Shown piece by piece: positions 4,462 to 63,439 of a stretch of 64,000 nucleotides of DNA. Every line of letters begins with the position of its first letter. Position 1 is the stretch's first letter. The notes below the pieces were generated by a model. It was given only the letters and a program-made list of their open reading frames with translations. It was not told the DNA's origin and ran no database searches. The DNA comes from Escherichia phage vB-Eco-KMB43. A program made the translations under genes and the position numbers. The stretch lies in the sequence record OR525698.1. One strand, 5' to 3'.

Positions 4462-4956
4462 TTATTTTACCAGTTCTGCTAATTCTTTTTCCGCCGCTTC
4501 CAGTTCAGCTTTCAGTTGTTTGATCTCTTGTCGCTTCTTATTAGCGGCTTCCTGCTTACTATTTCGGATAATCTGATCTAGATATGAATCCCACTCCTGA
4601 ATATTTTTGATAATGTAACCGTCAACATTAATTGGTCGGAGATTTAGTACAGCTTCCAGTTTAGTTGCAAAAACTTTAATTGCTGGTGTGAAGTATTCAT
4701 ACTCGTTATCTTCAAACCAATAGCCTAGACTTGCATTCTCAATACGAAGACGAAGTTCAAGATCAAGGTCTTTATCTTCGGTGTAAAGATCTTGCACATG
4801 CCCCATCGAACTAACAACAACTTTAAAACGAATTTTATCAACACCACCAAACACACCAGTAAGTATACCAGCAATTGAGCTATTAGCGCAAGATTGGTCG
4901 CTGAATGCGTCAAGGTTTTCTTTAGTTACAGTATACCAAACATCTTGTACCCACAT
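4462..4956 (-). CDS. hypothetical protein with C-terminal coiled coil
   Basis: ORF track; C-terminal heptad-like tail (KQLKAELEAAEKELAELVK) similar in character to tails of 5011..6189 and 6246..6830. Confidence 0.55.
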   Translation of the reverse strand: MWVQDVWYTVTKENLDAFSDQSCANSSIAGILTGVFGGVDKIRFKVVVSSMGHVQDLYTEDKDLDLELRLRIENASLGYWFEDNEYEYFTPAIKVFATKLEAVLNLRPINVDGYIIKNIQEWDSYLDQIIRNSKQEAANKKRQEIKQLKAELEAAEKELAELVK

Positions 4957-4980
4957 AATATAATCCTCTCGTTGTTAAGT

Positions 4981-5014: not shown

Positions 5015-6189
5015 ACACTAACTTTTTTCTTTACTGCTTTCACCTTCTGGCGAATTGCTCGAATCTCTTCGATCTCTTTTTCAGTCTCTTTAACAATTTC
5101 TTTGCGATTCTGAATATCTGTATCTAGATTCTCATCGAGTTTAGGAAGCATGTCGATCAAGAACTTTTTAAGGTCTTTCAGGTTGCGAATAACAGTACCT
5201 TCACCCATTACCGCAACACCCACACCATCCGGCAGATCACCAAACAGCTTAACCAGTTCAGACAGATGATCATGATCTTCTAGTGCTTCTTCCGGTTCAG
5301 ATGGCAGTTCAACAAAGTTATAACGTTCATCATTGCTGATCAAGTGATACCAGCAAAGCCCGAAAGATTTCGGTGTATATTCTACACCATCAATTTCAAC
5401 CGCGTCAACACTTCCATAATCATCTACTTTAGTTACCTTAAATCCTTGTCCCAGCTTTTGAACAATTTCAACAACATGACTTGATACAGTTTCAGCGGTA
5501 AACCAATATGGCAAATTATGCTGATTTGGCTTGTAGCGTTCACCTACTTTAAATCTCTGACCATCCGCTTGCATAGCATGAAATTGTTGTTGCGTGATTT
5601 CCGCGAAGTATTCAAATTCGCTACCGTCAAACAAGCAATTCCATTGATCACAAAAACGATCTGCCTTAACAGTTTCACCTTTCGCGGTGATCATGGTAGC
5701 TGATCCGTGCAATTCTTCTTCAACTAAAAAGCCATATTCGACAAAATCAACAAGTTTCATAGCTTCTTTGTGATCTGGATCATGCTCTCCCCAGAATCGC
5801 TTAAATTCTTGCAAACCTTCTGGGGTAAACGAATAACATTTACCTTTTTCAAAGTAAGTCGGCATTGCATCCTCTTTCTTGTTCATCGCTTCGTATGCCT
5901 CTTTTGAGATACGTTTAAAGTATTTGCGCTCATTGTTCATAATCATAGTAGCCCAATAATCCACAATATCATTAGCGGAATAAACTACATCTCCAGCTTC
6001 AATAGTAATAACATGACCGTGGTCATCTTTTTCTAATACTTTAAAGCCCTTTTCTACGATTTCAGCAACCCGAATATGACCACGGCGCGAAGCATCGGTC
6101 AGAATAATTGAATAGCGAGAAAAGTCTAGAAACTCATCTTTACCGCCTTCACGGAATGCATAGTAATGACCTTCAAAGAATTTAGCCAT
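5011..6189 (-). CDS. hypothetical protein with three copies of an ~80 aa repeat domain
   Basis: Internal repeats (YYAFREGG...KGFKVLEKDDHGHV; QGFKVTKVDDYGSVDAVEIDGVEYTPKSF) shared with ORFs 6246..6830 and 6839..7159. Confidence 0.65.
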   Translation of the reverse strand: MAKFFEGHYYAFREGGKDEFLDFSRYSIILTDASRRGHIRVAEIVEKGFKVLEKDDHGHVITIEAGDVVYSANDIVDYWATMIMNNERKYFKRISKEAYEAMNKKEDAMPTYFEKGKCYSFTPEGLQEFKRFWGEHDPDHKEAMKLVDFVEYGFLVEEELHGSATMITAKGETVKADRFCDQWNCLFDGSEFEYFAEITQQQFHAMQADGQRFKVGERYKPNQHNLPYWFTAETVSSHVVEIVQKLGQGFKVTKVDDYGSVDAVEIDGVEYTPKSFGLCWYHLISNDERYNFVELPSEPEEALEDHDHLSELVKLFGDLPDGVGVAVMGEGTVIRNLKDLKKFLIDMLPKLDENLDTDIQNRKEIVKETEKEIEEIRAIRQKVKAVKKKVSV

Positions 6190-29268: not shown

Positions 29269-29739
29269 TTACAGTTTGGTCGTCCACTCCAGGTCTAGAT
29301 CTTCGACATACTCATGAGATCGGACAATCTCTAAATCGAACTCAAGGTCAGTGCCAAATTTACGCGCACCAACATCATAAGAAAGCGTGATATGCGGTAC
29401 ATATTCAGGATAATCCCACGTCGCACCTAAAGCAGTGCCGATATCGTGTCTGAATTGCATGTAGTCGCTTTCAAATGCCAGCACAAGCGCATTAGTACCG
29501 GATTGAGTTTCAAACACTTTCAGATGGCATAGAGAGCCTAAGAACTTCTCCCCTTCTTCTGGGATAAACGGAACATAGACACGAGAATATAAGATAGTGC
29601 TATGCAGTTTATCACGAGGAACGGCATTAGGCAGATCGTAGAACTCCTGCAATTTTTCAATGCGGTCTAGTGTATCCTCAGTGAATTTAACCGCCGCATA
29701 TGTACCTTTAACGGATTCTCTAAACGGGGTCATAATCAA
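29269..29739 (-). CDS. 57B: 2H phosphoesterase, Acb1-type anti-CBASS nuclease (T4 gene 57B position)
   Basis: Two H-x-T/S motifs (HSTILY, HITLSY); position next to 57A and gene 1 as in T4. Confidence 0.75.
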   Translation of the reverse strand: MIMTPFRESVKGTYAAVKFTEDTLDRIEKLQEFYDLPNAVPRDKLHSTILYSRVYVPFIPEEGEKFLGSLCHLKVFETQSGTNALVLAFESDYMQFRHDIGTALGATWDYPEYVPHITLSYDVGARKFGTDLEFDLEIVRSHEYVEDLDLEWTTKL

Positions 29740-30002
29740 GCCTCCGTGATCAGTTCTACTTCCTCTTCTGCTTCTTCTGCGGCTTCGTCTTTAGGGAGAA
29801 GTGCTTTCACTTCTTCGACGATAGCATCAAGGGAAACAGTCCCGTTTTCGTCTGGCTGAATACCCAGAATGCGTACCAGTTCCATCAATACACGCTCACG
29901 ATCTTTCAGTTGGCCTTCTAAGAATGCGGCCTTTTCTTGAGTGTCAAACAGACGTACTTTCAGGACATTAATCATTTGTTCATGCTGATTGGACATATTC
30001 AC
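29736..30002 (-). CDS. 57A: tail fiber assembly chaperone
   Basis: Small acidic helical protein resembling T4 gp57A as recalled; synteny with gene 1. Confidence 0.7.
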   Translation of the reverse strand: MNMSNQHEQMINVLKVRLFDTQEKAAFLEGQLKDRERVLMELVRILGIQPDENGTVSLDAIVEEVKALLPKDEAAEEAEEEVELITEA

Positions 30003-30028: not shown

Positions 30029-30685
30029 TTAAATGTTCGCGAGAATCGCGCTTTCAAATTCTTCTAATGTACCATTATTTATGATAATGGTTTCACTGTC
30101 AATAGGCAAAATTCCTTTTTCGGTGGAGTGAGTCGATACAATACCAGTATCACGCTGAATATGCAACACCTTAGCACCCATAGCACGCACGAGAGCAATT
30201 TCAATAGGCTGACGCACATCAACCACTACAAAATAACCTTCTTCATTTTTGCGCTTCATAAACTCATTAACGAAGAGATTACACCAATAAAGCGGATTGA
30301 TCAAGTTAACCATTATATCAGTACCGAGAGTGGTTAACATGAGACGAATAGACCAGACGTTATTATGTTTTTCGCCAATCTCATTAACGACCTTGTAAAT
30401 CTCAGCCAGACGATCACAAGTAAAGGAACTACCTCCATACTTCGAATCTAGCATAAGCAGACACTGAATAAACCACTTATGCGCGGTATAGGTATCAATA
30501 CCTAGATCGGATTCTCTGTCACGCCCTAACCCGTCAAAGTCAAGATAAGTCAGACCTAAGTCTGGTTGACATTCGCACAATATTTCTTTGATCGGTGCTG
30601 CCAGTTGATAACTATGTCCATCAATGATTAACGCGGCAGTGTCTTTTCCTACTCGCTTTTTACCACAAAGTGCAATCAATTTCAT
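30029..30685 (-). CDS. 1: deoxynucleoside monophosphate kinase
   Basis: P-loop GKKRVGKDT and LGTD, MGAKVLH, THSTEKG segments match T4 gp1 as recalled. Confidence 0.85.
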   Translation of the reverse strand: MKLIALCGKKRVGKDTAALIIDGHSYQLAAPIKEILCECQPDLGLTYLDFDGLGRDRESDLGIDTYTAHKWFIQCLLMLDSKYGGSSFTCDRLAEIYKVVNEIGEKHNNVWSIRLMLTTLGTDIMVNLINPLYWCNLFVNEFMKRKNEEGYFVVVDVRQPIEIALVRAMGAKVLHIQRDTGIVSTHSTEKGILPIDSETIIINNGTLEEFESAILANI

Positions 30686-30700
30686 TATATAAGCCTCTTA

Positions 30701-31291
30701 TTACTTTCTAAAAGCAGGGTGCATAGCTTTAATACCTTCCACCCGCTGACGATCCGCCGCCTGAATTGCTGGGCGAGGAACGATCAGTTGACCATCACGT
30801 TCAATGCTCATTGTTTTAAAGGGAAGAATTGCAGTACACACCAGAGATTCATGCATATCATCGGTGTATGTTAACTCAAGTTCCCCCAATTGTGAACACC
30901 AACAACCATAAAAGTTAAAAGTGCACACAATGTTACGTCGTTCGTTGTCCATCATGTGAACTTGAACGGCTTCCGGCATTGAATCCTTCCACGCAGTGGA
31001 GTTACCGTTATTGTAGTCTACTATAGAAAGCATCCATGTGTAAAGGTTTAGATAACTTTCCAAATGCTCATCGACAATAAACCGGACTACCAACGGGTCA
31101 AACTCCACATGACTAGAAGGATAATCAGCAACCGCCAAACCATATTGACCAGCAACTTGCTTAGTCGGTGGAATGGTTATAGCCGGAAGTGTAACACCTT
31201 GAGCATTTAAAGTAAAGCCTTTTGTTAGTTGTCCATCTGGAATATTGATCTGCCAGTTGCTGGGGTTAGCATAGTTAAAGAGATTGGACAT
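30701..31291 (-). CDS. 3: tail completion / sheath stabiliser protein
   Basis: Position between gene 1 and gene 2 as in T4; similar size; sequence not independently verified. Confidence 0.6.
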   Translation of the reverse strand: MSNLFNYANPSNWQINIPDGQLTKGFTLNAQGVTLPAITIPPTKQVAGQYGLAVADYPSSHVEFDPLVVRFIVDEHLESYLNLYTWMLSIVDYNNGNSTAWKDSMPEAVQVHMMDNERRNIVCTFNFYGCWCSQLGELELTYTDDMHESLVCTAILPFKTMSIERDGQLIVPRPAIQAADRQRVEGIKAMHPAFRK

Positions 31292-31480
31292 TTTCGATTC
31301 CTCAAATGAAAATATTTATTAACAATTGTCGCTTTGCGACGTGCCGGAGGCACTGACTACTTTTTAACCGAAACAAATTTCTATTATTCTAAAGATCTTT
31401 CTTCGTTTTGGTTATGTTTTAACCAATAACTATATTTTTATACAGTAATAAATAAAACGGGTACTATACGAGGACTTCTT

Positions 31481-31735
31481 ATGACAGAAGACATTTTGTT
31501 AAAACTCTATGATCGTTTGGATAACGAATTAGCAACATTGCGGGGTGAAGTTCTCTATTTGTCTAAATGCAATACAGATCTGCTTAAGCAGATTGCAGAA
31601 AGGGATGATCAAATAAAATCCCTTTCAGGTGCATTACGTGATCGCGACAAGGCATTAGAGATTTTACAGCGTGTTACCAATAAGGAAGAATTAAAAGACT
31701 TCTTACATGGTTATGCTCATGCTATCGATCTATAA
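31481..31735 (+). CDS. hypothetical coiled-coil protein, opposite strand to its neighbours
   Basis: 84 aa ORF with GAGGA RBS; heptad-like sequence; ends at a terminator hairpin. Confidence 0.45.
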   Translation: MTEDILLKLYDRLDNELATLRGEVLYLSKCNTDLLKQIAERDDQIKSLSGALRDRDKALEILQRVTNKEELKDFLHGYAHAIDL

Positions 31736-31763
31736 TAAAAAAAAGCCCGTCAATGACGGGCTT
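31736..31763 (-). terminator. rho-independent terminator after gene 2
   Basis: AGCCCGTC-att-GACGGGCT stem followed by T8 on the minus strand. Confidence 0.75.
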
Positions 31764-31767
31764 AATG

Positions 31768-32589
31768 TTATGCATCCTTCCAAACTTTCCTTGCGTCGTA
31801 TTTCTTGCCTTTTGACATAAACTGATATGTCGGCATATAGATAATATTGCTCCAGTCTTTCGGGCTAATCTCAACAAGTTTTGTTTTAATGTGTCCCGGT
31901 AGATATGCTTTGATCATGTGGTCACTACCACGCATACCTTTTACATCGCTCCATTTGATTTTTAAGCGTGTTTTATTGCTCAAGGTAGGAGTAGATGCAT
32001 ATTGCTTTAAAAGTGCTTCCAGAAACTGCTGACGGGCTTTAGGCGTTACATAGTGTAAGTTAAGACCCAGCATTACAGTATTACCCGCCTTTGTCTTAGA
32101 ATCACCCAGACAAATGATCAGCGGGAAAACATCCCAATATGGCAAAGTGTCTTTATACTTCGCATCATACATAAAGGTATAGATTCGCCCTACTTGCGGT
32201 TTTACAATCTGGTGTCCCTTTATTCCCGCTTTTATTGTTTTAGTAAACCACTCCTGTGATTTTTCTTTAGGACGACTCTTTGATACAGCACGCATAGACG
32301 CACGAAAATCATTAATCATCATCATTGCGCGTTGCTGCTTATTGAGACCCTTTGCGCCTTTCCCTTTTAGTTTTTCAACTTCTATTGCTGTTTTAATTTC
32401 GCTTGCATAACGAGACATACTTTTAGTGAAAGTCGCATAGGCTATTCCCTTAGAATCTGCAAATGCTTTAGCTGTCATGCCTTTGGCTTTTGCTTTCGCA
32501 AATTCTACACCCAATTCGACCCACTGTTTAGACTTTCTTTTTTGGGGAGACGGCTTTTCGTCTTCTGTGATTATTTCAAATACGCTCAT
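31768..32589 (-). CDS. 2: DNA end protector protein
   Basis: Position and size as T4 gene 2 between genes 3 and 4; basic N-terminus. Confidence 0.65.
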   Translation of the reverse strand: MSVFEIITEDEKPSPQKRKSKQWVELGVEFAKAKAKGMTAKAFADSKGIAYATFTKSMSRYASEIKTAIEVEKLKGKGAKGLNKQQRAMMMINDFRASMRAVSKSRPKEKSQEWFTKTIKAGIKGHQIVKPQVGRIYTFMYDAKYKDTLPYWDVFPLIICLGDSKTKAGNTVMLGLNLHYVTPKARQQFLEALLKQYASTPTLSNKTRLKIKWSDVKGMRGSDHMIKAYLPGHIKTKLVEISPKDWSNIIYMPTYQFMSKGKKYDARKVWKDA

Positions 32590-32600
32590 AATATTATCCT

Positions 32601-33077
32601 CTATTTGTTAAGCCCTTTAAAGCCAAACACTTTCTTTAATGCATGTTCGGTGATGATCTTAAACTCCATGTTATGCTTTTGGCACAAATCAACCGCAGCT
32701 TTCCACTTTTCCGTGTTTACAGTATATGTGTAACACTCTTGCATGTATCTTTGCTTAGTCTTAGTGGTTATTCTTTTTGGCCTTTCCGGTGGCCGTGTCT
32801 CTTTTGCCGGTTTAACTTCCCATAAGAACTCTTTACCATCTACAAATTTCACCCAAAAATCCATATGATACTTTCTGGATCGTTTATCTGCGCTAGACCA
32901 GTAAGGTATAATCACACACTCAGAGTTCCATTTAGACACGCTAGGACTACGGTCCAAAAATTTCATTATGTGCAATTCCCAGCTTGATCTATAAGTGATT
33001 TTATGCAAGTTGTTTCCTTTGTACTTCTCAGGATTTTCTGGCTTGAACTTGCCCTTATAAGTGTTAGATCCTCCCAT
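32601..33077 (-). CDS. 4: head completion protein
   Basis: Position divergent from gene 53 as in T4; size similar. Confidence 0.65.
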   Translation of the reverse strand: MGGSNTYKGKFKPENPEKYKGNNLHKITYRSSWELHIMKFLDRSPSVSKWNSECVIIPYWSSADKRSRKYHMDFWVKFVDGKEFLWEVKPAKETRPPERPKRITTKTKQRYMQECYTYTVNTEKWKAAVDLCQKHNMEFKIITEHALKKVFGFKGLNK

Positions 33078-33092
33078 TTTAGCACCCTTTAT

Positions 33093-33100
33093 TATAAATA
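33093..33100 (+). promoter_or_regulatory. T4-type late promoter motif TATAAATA upstream of gene 53
   Basis: Exact TATAAATA 33 nt upstream of the start codon. Confidence 0.65.
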
Positions 33101-33132
33101 CATAATACTATTTATCAATTGAGGGTGCTAAA

Positions 33133-61840: not shown

Positions 61841-63439
61841 ATGAAAACTACCAAAGAACTGATGGAAAAATGGTCCCCGCTGCTGGAGAACGAAAAACTG
61901 CCGGAAATCGCAACTGCGTCTAAGCAGAAACTGGTTGCTAAAATTCTGGAATCTCAGGAAGCGGATTTTGCTGTAGACCCGATCTATAAGGATGAAAAAG
62001 TTGTTGAAGCATTCGGTGGCTTTATCGTAGAAGCCGAAGTTGCTGGCGACCACGGTTATGACGCATCTCAGATCGCGGCTGGTCAGACTACTGGTGCAAT
62101 CACTAACGTAGGTCCGGCTGTTATCGGTATGGTTCGCCGTGCTATCCCTAACCTGATCGCATTTGATATTTGTGGTGTTCAGCCGATGAGCACTCCGACT
62201 AGCCAGATCTTTGCAATCCGTTCTGTATACGGTCCAGATCCGCTGGCAGGTGGCAATGCTCAGAATGTTCGTGAAGCATTCCATCCGATGTATGCACCTG
62301 ATGCGTTCCATAGCTCTCTTGCTGCTAAAGGTGCAACTGTAGGTTCACCAACTGGTACTGCATTCGCTAAACTAACTCTCAGTACTCCGATTGCTGCAGG
62401 TGATATTGTACACCACACCTTCGCAGAAACTGGCATTGCATATCTGCAAAACGTTACCTCAGGACAAGTAACCCCGACCAAATCTGGCAGCGAGTCAGAT
62501 GATGAAGTTGTCATGAAGCTGATTGAAGAAGGTAAACTGGCTGAAATCGCTTTCGGTATGGCGACTTCCATTGCCGAAATTCAGGAAGGATTTAACGGTT
62601 CCAGCAATAACCCGTGGGCTGAAATGTCAATGCGTATTGACAAACAGGTTGTTGAAGCGAAATCTCGCCAACTGAAAGCCCGTTACTCTATCGAAGTTGC
62701 GCAGGATCTGCGTGCTGTACACGGTATGGATGCTGACGCTGAACTGAATGCTATCCTGGCTAACGAAGTTCTGCTGGAAATCAACCGTGAAATCGTTGAC
62801 GTCATCAACTTTACCGCTCAGGTTGGTAAGACTGGTATGACTCAGACCGTTGGTTCTAAAGCTGGTGTATTTGACCTGCAAGACCCGATCGATACTCGCG
62901 GTGCTCGTTGGGCTGGTGAATCCTTCAAATCTCTGATCTACCAGATCGACAAAGAAGCTGCTGAAATCGCTCGTCAGACTGGTCGCGGTGCTGGTAACTT
63001 TGTTATCGCTTCCCGTAACGTTGTAAACATTCTGGCTTCTGCTGATCAGGGTATCAGTCTTGCTATGCAGGGTGCTGCAAAAGGTCTGAACACCGACACC
63101 ACTAAAGCTGTTTTCGCTGGTGTTCTGGCTGGTAAGTACAAAGTGTTCATCGACCAGTATGCTCGTCAAGACTACTTCACCGTAGGTTACAAAGGCGACA
63201 ACGAAATGGATGCTGGTATCTACTATGCTCCGTATGTTGCTCTGACTCCGCTGCGTGCAACTGACCCGCAGTCTTTCCACCCGGTTCTGGGCTTCAAGAC
63301 TCGCTATGGCATCGGCATTAACCCGTTTGCAGACAGCAAATCCCAGGCACCGTCCGCTCGCATCACCTCCGGTATGTTGAGCAAAGACAGCGTAGGTAAA
63401 AACGCATACTTCCGTCGTGTATGGGTTAAGGGTTGCTAA
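61841..63439 (+). CDS. 23: major capsid protein
   Basis: Long blocks nearly identical to T4 gp23 as recalled (GPAVIGMVRRAIPNLIAFDICGVQPM; DAGIYYAPYVALTPLR; YGIGINPFA). Confidence 0.97.
   Translation: MKTTKELMEKWSPLLENEKLPEIATASKQKLVAKILESQEADFAVDPIYKDEKVVEAFGGFIVEAEVAGDHGYDASQIAAGQTTGAITNVGPAVIGMVRRAIPNLIAFDICGVQPMSTPTSQIFAIRSVYGPDPLAGGNAQNVREAFHPMYAPDAFHSSLAAKGATVGSPTGTAFAKLTLSTPIAAGDIVHHTFAETGIAYLQNVTSGQVTPTKSGSESDDEVVMKLIEEGKLAEIAFGMATSIAEIQEGFNGSSNNPWAEMSMRIDKQVVEAKSRQLKARYSIEVAQDLRAVHGMDADAELNAILANEVLLEINREIVDVINFTAQVGKTGMTQTVGSKAGVFDLQDPIDTRGARWAGESFKSLIYQIDKEAAEIARQTGRGAGNFVIASRNVVNILASADQGISLAMQGAAKGLNTDTTKAVFAGVLAGKYKVFIDQYARQDYFTVGYKGDNEMDAGIYYAPYVALTPLRATDPQSFHPVLGFKTRYGIGINPFADSKSQAPSARITSGMLSKDSVGKNAYFRRVWVKGC

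Follow-up and report, generated by a model that had tools for sequence, protein, structure and literature searches.

ORF130w of RB49-like phages: a conserved gene for a predicted coiled-coil protein, probably expressed late, between genes 3 and 2

The short open reading frame (ORF) that lies between genes 3 and 2 in the genome of Escherichia phage vB-Eco-KMB43 is a real gene, conserved in place and under purifying selection. It is already annotated, as an uncharacterised gene, and is restricted to the genus Krischvirus (RB49-like phages) and a few uncultured relatives. Most likely, judging from the motifs in its upstream region, it has its own T4-type late promoter, and the best guess as to its function, made by analogy, is that of a late oligomeric adaptor or chaperone. 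To what was known of this gene our analysis adds a well-supported predicted late promoter, the context of a transcription unit boundary, the anatomy of a coiled coil, negative results of protein family tests, and a repeated hairpin element. The gene can thus be better annotated in every RB49-like phage, as encoding a conserved, probably late-expressed coiled-coil protein instead of an anonymous ORF. Several RB49-like phages are used or have been proposed for therapy.

The gene 2/gene 3 interval and its gene

The analysed stretch of 64,000 nt (GenBank Acc. No. OR525698.1; here referred to as the window) belongs, by its sequence, to an RB49-like Krischvirus, and over the 2.1 kb around the ORF its identity to RB49 and to 57 further records of Krischvirus (Straboviridae) is 97-99%. 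The relevant features are as follows.

29736-30002, minus strand: gene of gp57A (the gene of gp57B is likewise on the minus strand)
30029-30685, minus strand: gene 1
30701-31291, minus strand: gene 3, with its ATG at 31291
31292-31480: spacer between gene 3 and the ORF, 189 nt, 30.7% GC (40.7% in the whole window)
31313-31320, minus strand: late-promoter motif of gene 3, AATAAATA, 21 nt before the ATG at 31291, marking the start of the gene 3 unit
31447-31454, plus strand: late-promoter motif of the ORF, AATAAATA, 26 nt before its ATG
31470-31474, plus strand: Shine-Dalgarno sequence GAGGA of the ORF, 6 nt before its ATG
31481-31735, plus strand: ORF, 84 aa, ATG start (homologue of RB49ORF130w/RB49p130)
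31743-31763, minus strand: intrinsic terminator AAGCCCGTC-ATT-GACGGGCTT, common to the converging gene 2 and ORF
31768-32589, minus strand: gene 2
32601-33077, minus strand: gene 4
beyond gene 4, plus strand: genes 53 and 5

The first-pass annotation of this region had described an 84 aa plus-strand ORF with a good ribosome-binding site, an AT-rich flank of 190 nt, and an orientation opposite to that of genes 1, 3, 2, and 4, and in all these points it agrees with the coordinates above. It had also placed the ORF inside a single transcription unit of these four genes, which has to be corrected. Since gene 2 is followed by a strong minus-strand terminator and gene 3 is preceded by its own late-promoter motif, the ORF is located between two units and not inside one: the leftward genes 4-2 and 3-1 form separate units, with the ORF at their boundary. 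A foreign origin of the ORF cannot be deduced from its composition, as its GC content (36.5% vs. 40.7% in the window) is unremarkable.

At the other end of the gene 4-2 unit, the divergent region between gene 4 and gene 53 (33079-33131) contains three signals in about 50 nt, namely, TATAAATA for gene 53 at 33093 and, on the minus strand, GATAAATA for gene 4 at 33116 as well as a sigma-70-like site with 11/12 matches (33118-33091). Such packing suggests that genes 4-2 are transcribed both early and late. The product of gene 4 (32601-33077), annotated as head completion protein, matches the N-terminal domain of TnsA-like endonucleases (PF08722, E = 9e-20), in agreement with the annotation 'head completion nuclease' in the record of Erwinia phage COW86c.

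The ORF corresponds to RB49p130 of GenBank, described as 'hypothetical protein' (NP_891701), with which it shares 100% amino acid identity, position, and strand, and which was named RB49ORF130w in the comparative paper of 2006 (Nolan et al. 2006). The profile of PHROG 17832 (function unknown) matches residues 1-84 of its 84 (E = 2.1e-57), and is also matched by a distant homologue, P0008 (E = 3e-16). The RB49p130 and PHROG 17832 entries give no function, promoter, or expression class; otherwise they do not differ from the ORF studied here.

All 58 Krischvirus records contain the ORF, and in 52 of them the encoded protein is 100% identical. A search of about 15 billion proteins revealed homologues in only four further lineages, those of uncultured relatives, with identities of 94, 72, 67, and 44%. 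In each of these lineages the homologue and gene 2 are convergent (in the short contig L009 the converging gene is presumably gene 2), and gene 3 flanks the other side of the homologue wherever the contig reaches that far. Other phage records gave no homologue by tblastn. When 1.84 billion representatives were searched with a profile, one true distant homologue was obtained, P0008, the remainder being long, repetitive coiled-coil proteins, while the three loci found by the scan of IMG/VR all belong to close relatives. No ORF is annotated between genes 2 and 3 in T2 (interval of 107 nt), CC31 (82 nt), or Aes508 (268 nt); in Aes508 a terminator-like hairpin follows gene 2 as well. The earlier suggestion of a lineage-specific insertion is thereby borne out.

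A lack of conservation in relatives had been named in the first-pass annotation among the findings that would refute its reading, but the ORF is kept in them under purifying selection. Its dN/dS values (Nei-Gojobori) are 0.09-0.21, and substitutions pile up at the third codon position (e.g., 21, 10, and 43 at positions 1, 2, and 3, respectively). The ribosome-binding site is also conserved, as GAGG or AAGGAG in the lineages L005 and L009. Identities of the ORF product to its homologues in L010, L005, and L016 (94, 67, and 44%) are comparable with those of gp57A (77, 53, and 46%) and gp1 (94, 59, and 46%), so its divergence rate resembles the rates of these two proteins, unlike those of the virion core proteins gp3, gp2, and gp53, which retain 72-79% identity at the largest distance. 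In phage FL20 the otherwise identical gene has a one-site frameshift at codon 42, and in two metagenomic clusters (P0006 and P0007) the ORF is cut off near the same codon; this may mean that the gene is dispensable, or it may reflect sequencing errors in a homopolymer. One could regard the ORF, which is short and has no known domain, as a chance reading frame of an AT-rich spacer or a decaying remnant, and the frameshifted copies in FL20 and the two metagenomic clusters would fit this. Yet its conservation at the same position down to 44% identity, with dN/dS of 0.1-0.2, already refutes this reading, to which we assign a negligible probability. The ORF is an ordinary lineage-specific accessory gene that is vertically inherited.

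The neighborhood of the gene is less stable. In phage phiS the promoter of gene 3 and the hairpins of the spacer are separated by a gene of an HNH/AP2 endonuclease, which is inserted exactly there and has a TTGACA-17-TAGATT promoter of its own (phiS locus L003, 1724-2257), and in phage ECD7 a gene of a 344-aa HNH-family endonuclease separates the terminator from gene 2 (L002, 2168-3202). By their coordinates and annotations, Phi1, FL37/38, and G2248 appear to have an insertion at the ECD7 site too, and JSE contains extra DNA there, with nothing annotated in it. Two different free-standing HNH homing-endonuclease genes thus flank the ORF in some Krischviruses, and the ORF is intact. Unrelated opposite-strand genes follow gene 2 in the Slopekvirus phage Miro. 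Taken together, the ORF, the two HNH genes, and the cargo in Slopekvirus and in an uncultured relative let the gene 2/gene 3 boundary emerge as a recurrent insertion site. While the ORF130w protein is 100% identical in JSE, G37-3, AV108, PTE-Eco09, and JK32, gp2 of these phages is only 81-88% identical. This contrast places a sharp mosaic boundary at the terminator that the two genes share, possibly owing to co-conversion around endonuclease insertions.

Late promoter and shared terminator

The consensus sequence of T4 late promoters is TATAAATA. The motif before the ORF, AATAAATA, is of this type at -13 to -6 and is located a short distance upstream of the ribosome-binding site, as in T4-type late genes. 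Exact TATAAATA occurs at the aligned position and at the same distance from the start codon in lineages L010/L013, L005, and L009, and ATAAATA (31448-31454) is the sole stretch of 5 nt or longer that stays invariant when the spacers of four lineages are aligned. Among dinucleotide shuffles, 0.8% had a chance [AT]ATAAATA at 12-45 nt from the ATG. In the window, NATAAATA is present 20-33 nt before genes 3, 4, and 53 and several other late genes. Variants of the T4 late promoters most often have A at -13 (9 of 50 promoters; PMC2988020), and A or T at this position is common in RB49 (PMC1524935). In L016, the most distant relative, the motif is reduced to GCTAAATA, 17 nt upstream of the ATG of the homologue, which is preceded by two plus-strand ORFs (64 and 204 aa, without a family match) and a hairpin. 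The interval between gene 3 and the homologue in L016 is 1.5 kb long and contains an array of AGCGATTAC-like direct repeats and a TTGACA-type promoter (L016 positions 4830-4960 and 5072-5941).

The polarity of the ORF agrees with the promoter motif. In T4-type phages all early and all middle transcripts are directed opposite to the ORF, whose strand is late-only (PMC2988020, PMC1524935). Scanning of the plus strand at 31320-31480 revealed no sigma-70-like site of at least 9/12, and the list of Nolan et al. (2006) contains no early promoter at RB49 positions 62,700-63,299, which comprise the spacer and the ORF. The same authors predicted no late promoter at the ORF either; their 17 late sites also omit genes 3 and 4. 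A search of the literature for Krischvirus transcripts, virion proteomes, and phenotypes of this ORF gave nothing usable. From the motif and the polarity we strongly infer late transcription of the ORF. With its probable late expression, it departs from the published rule that novel ORFs of T4-like phages belong to the early genes.

The strong terminator that had been noticed beside the ORF is a real hairpin of nine pairs, six of them G-C, and its stem is invariant in all lineages. Its folding z-scores are -4.8 for the plus strand and -3.5 for the minus strand, with none of 200 shuffles folding as well. Among Rfam 15 families none reached its gathering score, the best match being one of 21.5 bits vs. 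50, on the terminator itself. The attribution of the hairpin to the ORF has to be modified, however, as it is canonical on the minus strand, where its tail is TTTTTTATTA (T8) and where the terminator scan calls it. On the plus strand the stem is followed only by UUAAUGUU, uncalled by the scan, the tail being the weak U-tract TTAATGTT. The T8 tail indicates that the hairpin serves gene 2 in the first place, as the terminator at which the gene 4-2 transcript ends. In the supplement of Nolan et al. (2006) it is listed as the minus-strand terminator 'RB49ORF130w-><-2' with a TransTerm score of 100. The first-pass annotation had further proposed a regulator transcribed convergently with gene 2, of which the convergence and the shared hairpin hold, whereas nothing in the product, an acidic protein without a nucleic-acid-binding family, indicates a regulatory role.

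Two other readings of the expression of this locus have to be weighed. The gene could be an ORFan that is expressed early and serves anti-defence or the take-over of the host, in the manner of most novel ORFs of T4-like phages, for which Nolan et al. (2006) found co-expression with early genes to be the rule and late promoters to be predicted only before T4 orthologues; a weak TTGGTT-17-TATATT at 31408-31436 and a 9/12 site at 31285-31313 might then drive it. The location of the ORF on the late-only strand speaks against this, as do the lack, over the 160 nt upstream of the ATG, of any sigma-70 site that reaches the threshold of the scan, the conservation in L005, L009, and L010 of the late motif but not of the weak site, and the lack of a meaningful match in PADLOC, so that we consider early expression quite unlikely. 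Alternatively, the transcript rather than the peptide would matter, in that gene 2 (or gene 3) is tuned by convergent late transcription or by an antisense RNA arising from read-through, the peptide being incidental. The weak U-tract on the plus strand (TTAATGTT) makes read-through into gene 2 antisense plausible. Nevertheless, strong purifying selection on the amino acids with many synonymous changes, as well as the conserved ribosome-binding site, point to the peptide, and in phages of the ECD7/Phi1 type, where an endonuclease gene lies between the terminator and gene 2, the ORF is still 100% identical. An antisense function alone is therefore highly improbable.

Anatomy and possible function of the protein

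The product of the ORF is an acidic protein of 84 aa (9.7 kDa, pI 5.1). The heptad-like character of its sequence, remarked on in the first-pass annotation, is significant: residues 1-66 follow an unbroken heptad register with L, I, V, or M at 13 of the 19 a/d positions, a number reached by 11 of 20,000 shuffles. Leucine occupies d positions 6, 13, 20, 27, 34, 48, and 62, and Asn31 an a position. In the AlphaFold2 model (mean pLDDT 91) helix 2-64 is followed by helix 68-83, and thus the protein comprises a leucine-zipper coiled coil of eight heptads (approximately residues 3-64) and a C-terminal helix. Leucine at d with beta-branched residues and one asparagine at a is typical of parallel dimers. 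By these coiled-coil rules the composition of the a and d positions suggests a parallel dimer. Two clusters of residues are invariant among homologues, namely, F74, L75, G77, Y78, A79, and H80 of the C-terminal helix (FLxGYAH motif) and L52-R53-D54-R55-x-K57-A58 (LRDRxKA), a polar patch. Both resemble surfaces for the binding of a partner, set on a zipper that is otherwise generic. Parallel zippers of the GCN4 type likewise have leucine at d and beta-branched residues with one asparagine at a. The protein of eight heptads described here differs from them in its acidity, in the lack of a basic region, and in the presence of R41 and the invariant R55 at d positions.

Searches of Pfam, NCBIfam, and PADLOC gave nothing above noise, the matches in NCBIfam and PADLOC being far-sub-threshold ones to coiled coils, and family profile searches revealed no DNA- or RNA-binding family. 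Foldseek comparisons with BFVD and PDB gave no match apart from the protein itself and helices that were not significant, and in a profile search of PDB all matches were coiled coils of a generic kind (a NEMO construct, the dynein stalk, and SIR4). The most similar known protein in size and architecture is gp57A, the T4 tail-fibre chaperone (PF17594, PHROG 1002), which is also an acidic, nearly all-helical coiled coil of about 80 aa, is encoded in the same gene neighborhood, and shares a short LxDRExxL-like patch. As in the gp57A family, the architecture of the ORF product is that of a small coiled coil, with the predicted helix 2-64 and a significant heptad register. Still, there is no detectable homology between the two proteins, their genes are on opposite strands, and the phage has its own gp57A (29736-30002). 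We rejected the ORF product as a paralogue of gp57A, as BLASTP gave no alignment, PF17594 no match, and hhalign a probability of 2.6% over an 18-residue patch.

Our proposal, in which we have moderate confidence as a whole, is that the ORF is a genuine accessory gene of the Krischvirus type, encoding a late-expressed zipper protein that acts as adaptor or chaperone. It would be transcribed rightward from its own gp55-type late promoter AATAAATA (31447-31454) and translated from GAGGA, the transcript ending at the hairpin common to gene 2. The product would oligomerise through its zipper and bind a partner late in infection by means of LRDRxKA (52-58) and FLxGYAH, serving as a non-enzymatic adaptor or chaperone for virion morphogenesis or for DNA-end and head completion. 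Such a role would be analogous to that of gp57A, a protein of analogous size and architecture but unrelated. The oligomeric state, partner binding, and the process served are the parts of this scheme that we infer only weakly.

Instead of assisting morphogenesis, the protein could itself be a minor virion, decoration, or packaged protein, made late and incorporated into particles, as its late promoter and its location in the virion gene block, beside the head-completion genes 2 and 4, would permit. It evolves faster than the neighboring structural proteins, however, no conserved gp21-type processing or capsid-targeting motif was seen by eye in the alignment of homologues, and no proteomic report was found in the literature, all of which makes this variant unlikely. 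A further candidate is a functional analogue of T4 RIII, the small cytoplasmic lysis-inhibition helper that binds the holin. Both proteins are small, helical, and similar in size (82 and 84 aa), and RIII, which is widespread in other Straboviridae (1125 records), has no detectable homologue in the RB49-like genome, i.e., it is itself absent from Krischvirus (the best tblastn match, with an E-value of 0.037, is inside an unrelated 1.5-kb gene). Homology to RIII was rejected, as BLASTP gave no alignment. The loci differ, the ORF being unlinked to the holin gene, annotated at about 155 kb in RB49, and the analogy rests only on an absence; we find it very unlikely. The adaptor or chaperone role thus remains the reading that we prefer.

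A repeated hairpin element in the spacer

Most of the spacer is filled by an intergenic element of about 108 nt that is repeated elsewhere in these genomes and that includes an AT-rich stretch in addition to the following parts.

31319-31426, no strand assigned: repeated intergenic element, about 108 nt
31328-31353, no strand assigned: two abutting 5-bp hairpins, GTCGC-TTT-GCGAC (31328-31340) and GTGCC-GGA-GGCAC (31341-31353)
31391-31400: palindrome AAAGATCTTT with a GATC site
31408-31426: inverted repeat TTGGTTA-N5-TAACCAA

There is no second copy of the spacer within the window. In RB49 a 92%-identical inverted copy (150001-150110) is flanked by the terminator of gene 35 and the late promoter of gene 36 (TATAAATA), and two partial copies are present at 97555-97612 and 97715-97762. 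In nearly all of the 58 Krischvirus records the element is found in four places. In an alignment of eight sequences of the tandem hairpins, representing lineages and copies, 98.7% of the cells pair, and six of the ten pairs have undergone compensatory changes on both sides, which was matched by none of 500 shuffles (slid controls gave 0-4 such pairs). Folding of the tandem hairpins yields a minimum free energy of -13.5 kcal/mol for either strand. The two full copies are alike in that their hairpin end is directed towards a late promoter with its late gene (gene 3 and gene 36), and their opposite end towards a late-like motif. The motif of the second copy is 'TATAAAAAATA', which was scored by Nolan et al. 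(2006) as the late promoter Pl:150021, with Pl:150089 scored on the other side.

The element is reminiscent of the PeSL cassettes of RB49 and phi1 (Arbiol et al. 2010, PMC2839356), being, like them, a repeated composite intergenic module with stem-loops beside promoters, which flanks a lineage-specific ORF. PeSLs have, however, a consensus sigma-70 early promoter, are mostly located in hyperplastic regions, and often have polyG/polyC stems (PMC2839356), whereas the element described here has no such promoter, lies within a conserved virion block, and is bordered by late-promoter motifs. We tried PeSL as an assignment for it and rejected it: the stem-loops are present, but the plus strand has no sigma-70 site of at least 9/12 at 31320-31480, and an element without the sigma-70 consensus is not a PeSL as defined. 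In the literature that we searched, no description of a repeated hairpin element beside late promoters was found.

The element may serve as an insulator or reserve terminator, act in cis on late transcription, or be a substrate for recombination. One may speculate that it is a late-gene counterpart of PeSL, that is, a mobile or duplicated 'late promoter/stem-loop' module with outward-facing late-promoter motifs, which would insulate late units or act in cis on late transcription or replication (e.g., as a clamp-loading or origin-like site) and would have provided a landing pad and a promoter for ORF130w as a Krischvirus-specific late morphogenetic factor. This combination is doubtful, and we put it forward tentatively.

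A 9/12 sigma-70-like site on the plus strand (TGGACA-17-GAAAAT) overlaps the start of gene 3 and points into the tandem hairpins (window positions 31285-31365), which on this strand are followed by CTTTTT. The only single-sided variant of the hairpins (TB34, C to T) keeps pairing on the plus strand only. A short plus-strand hairpin RNA from 31285-31365 is conceivable.
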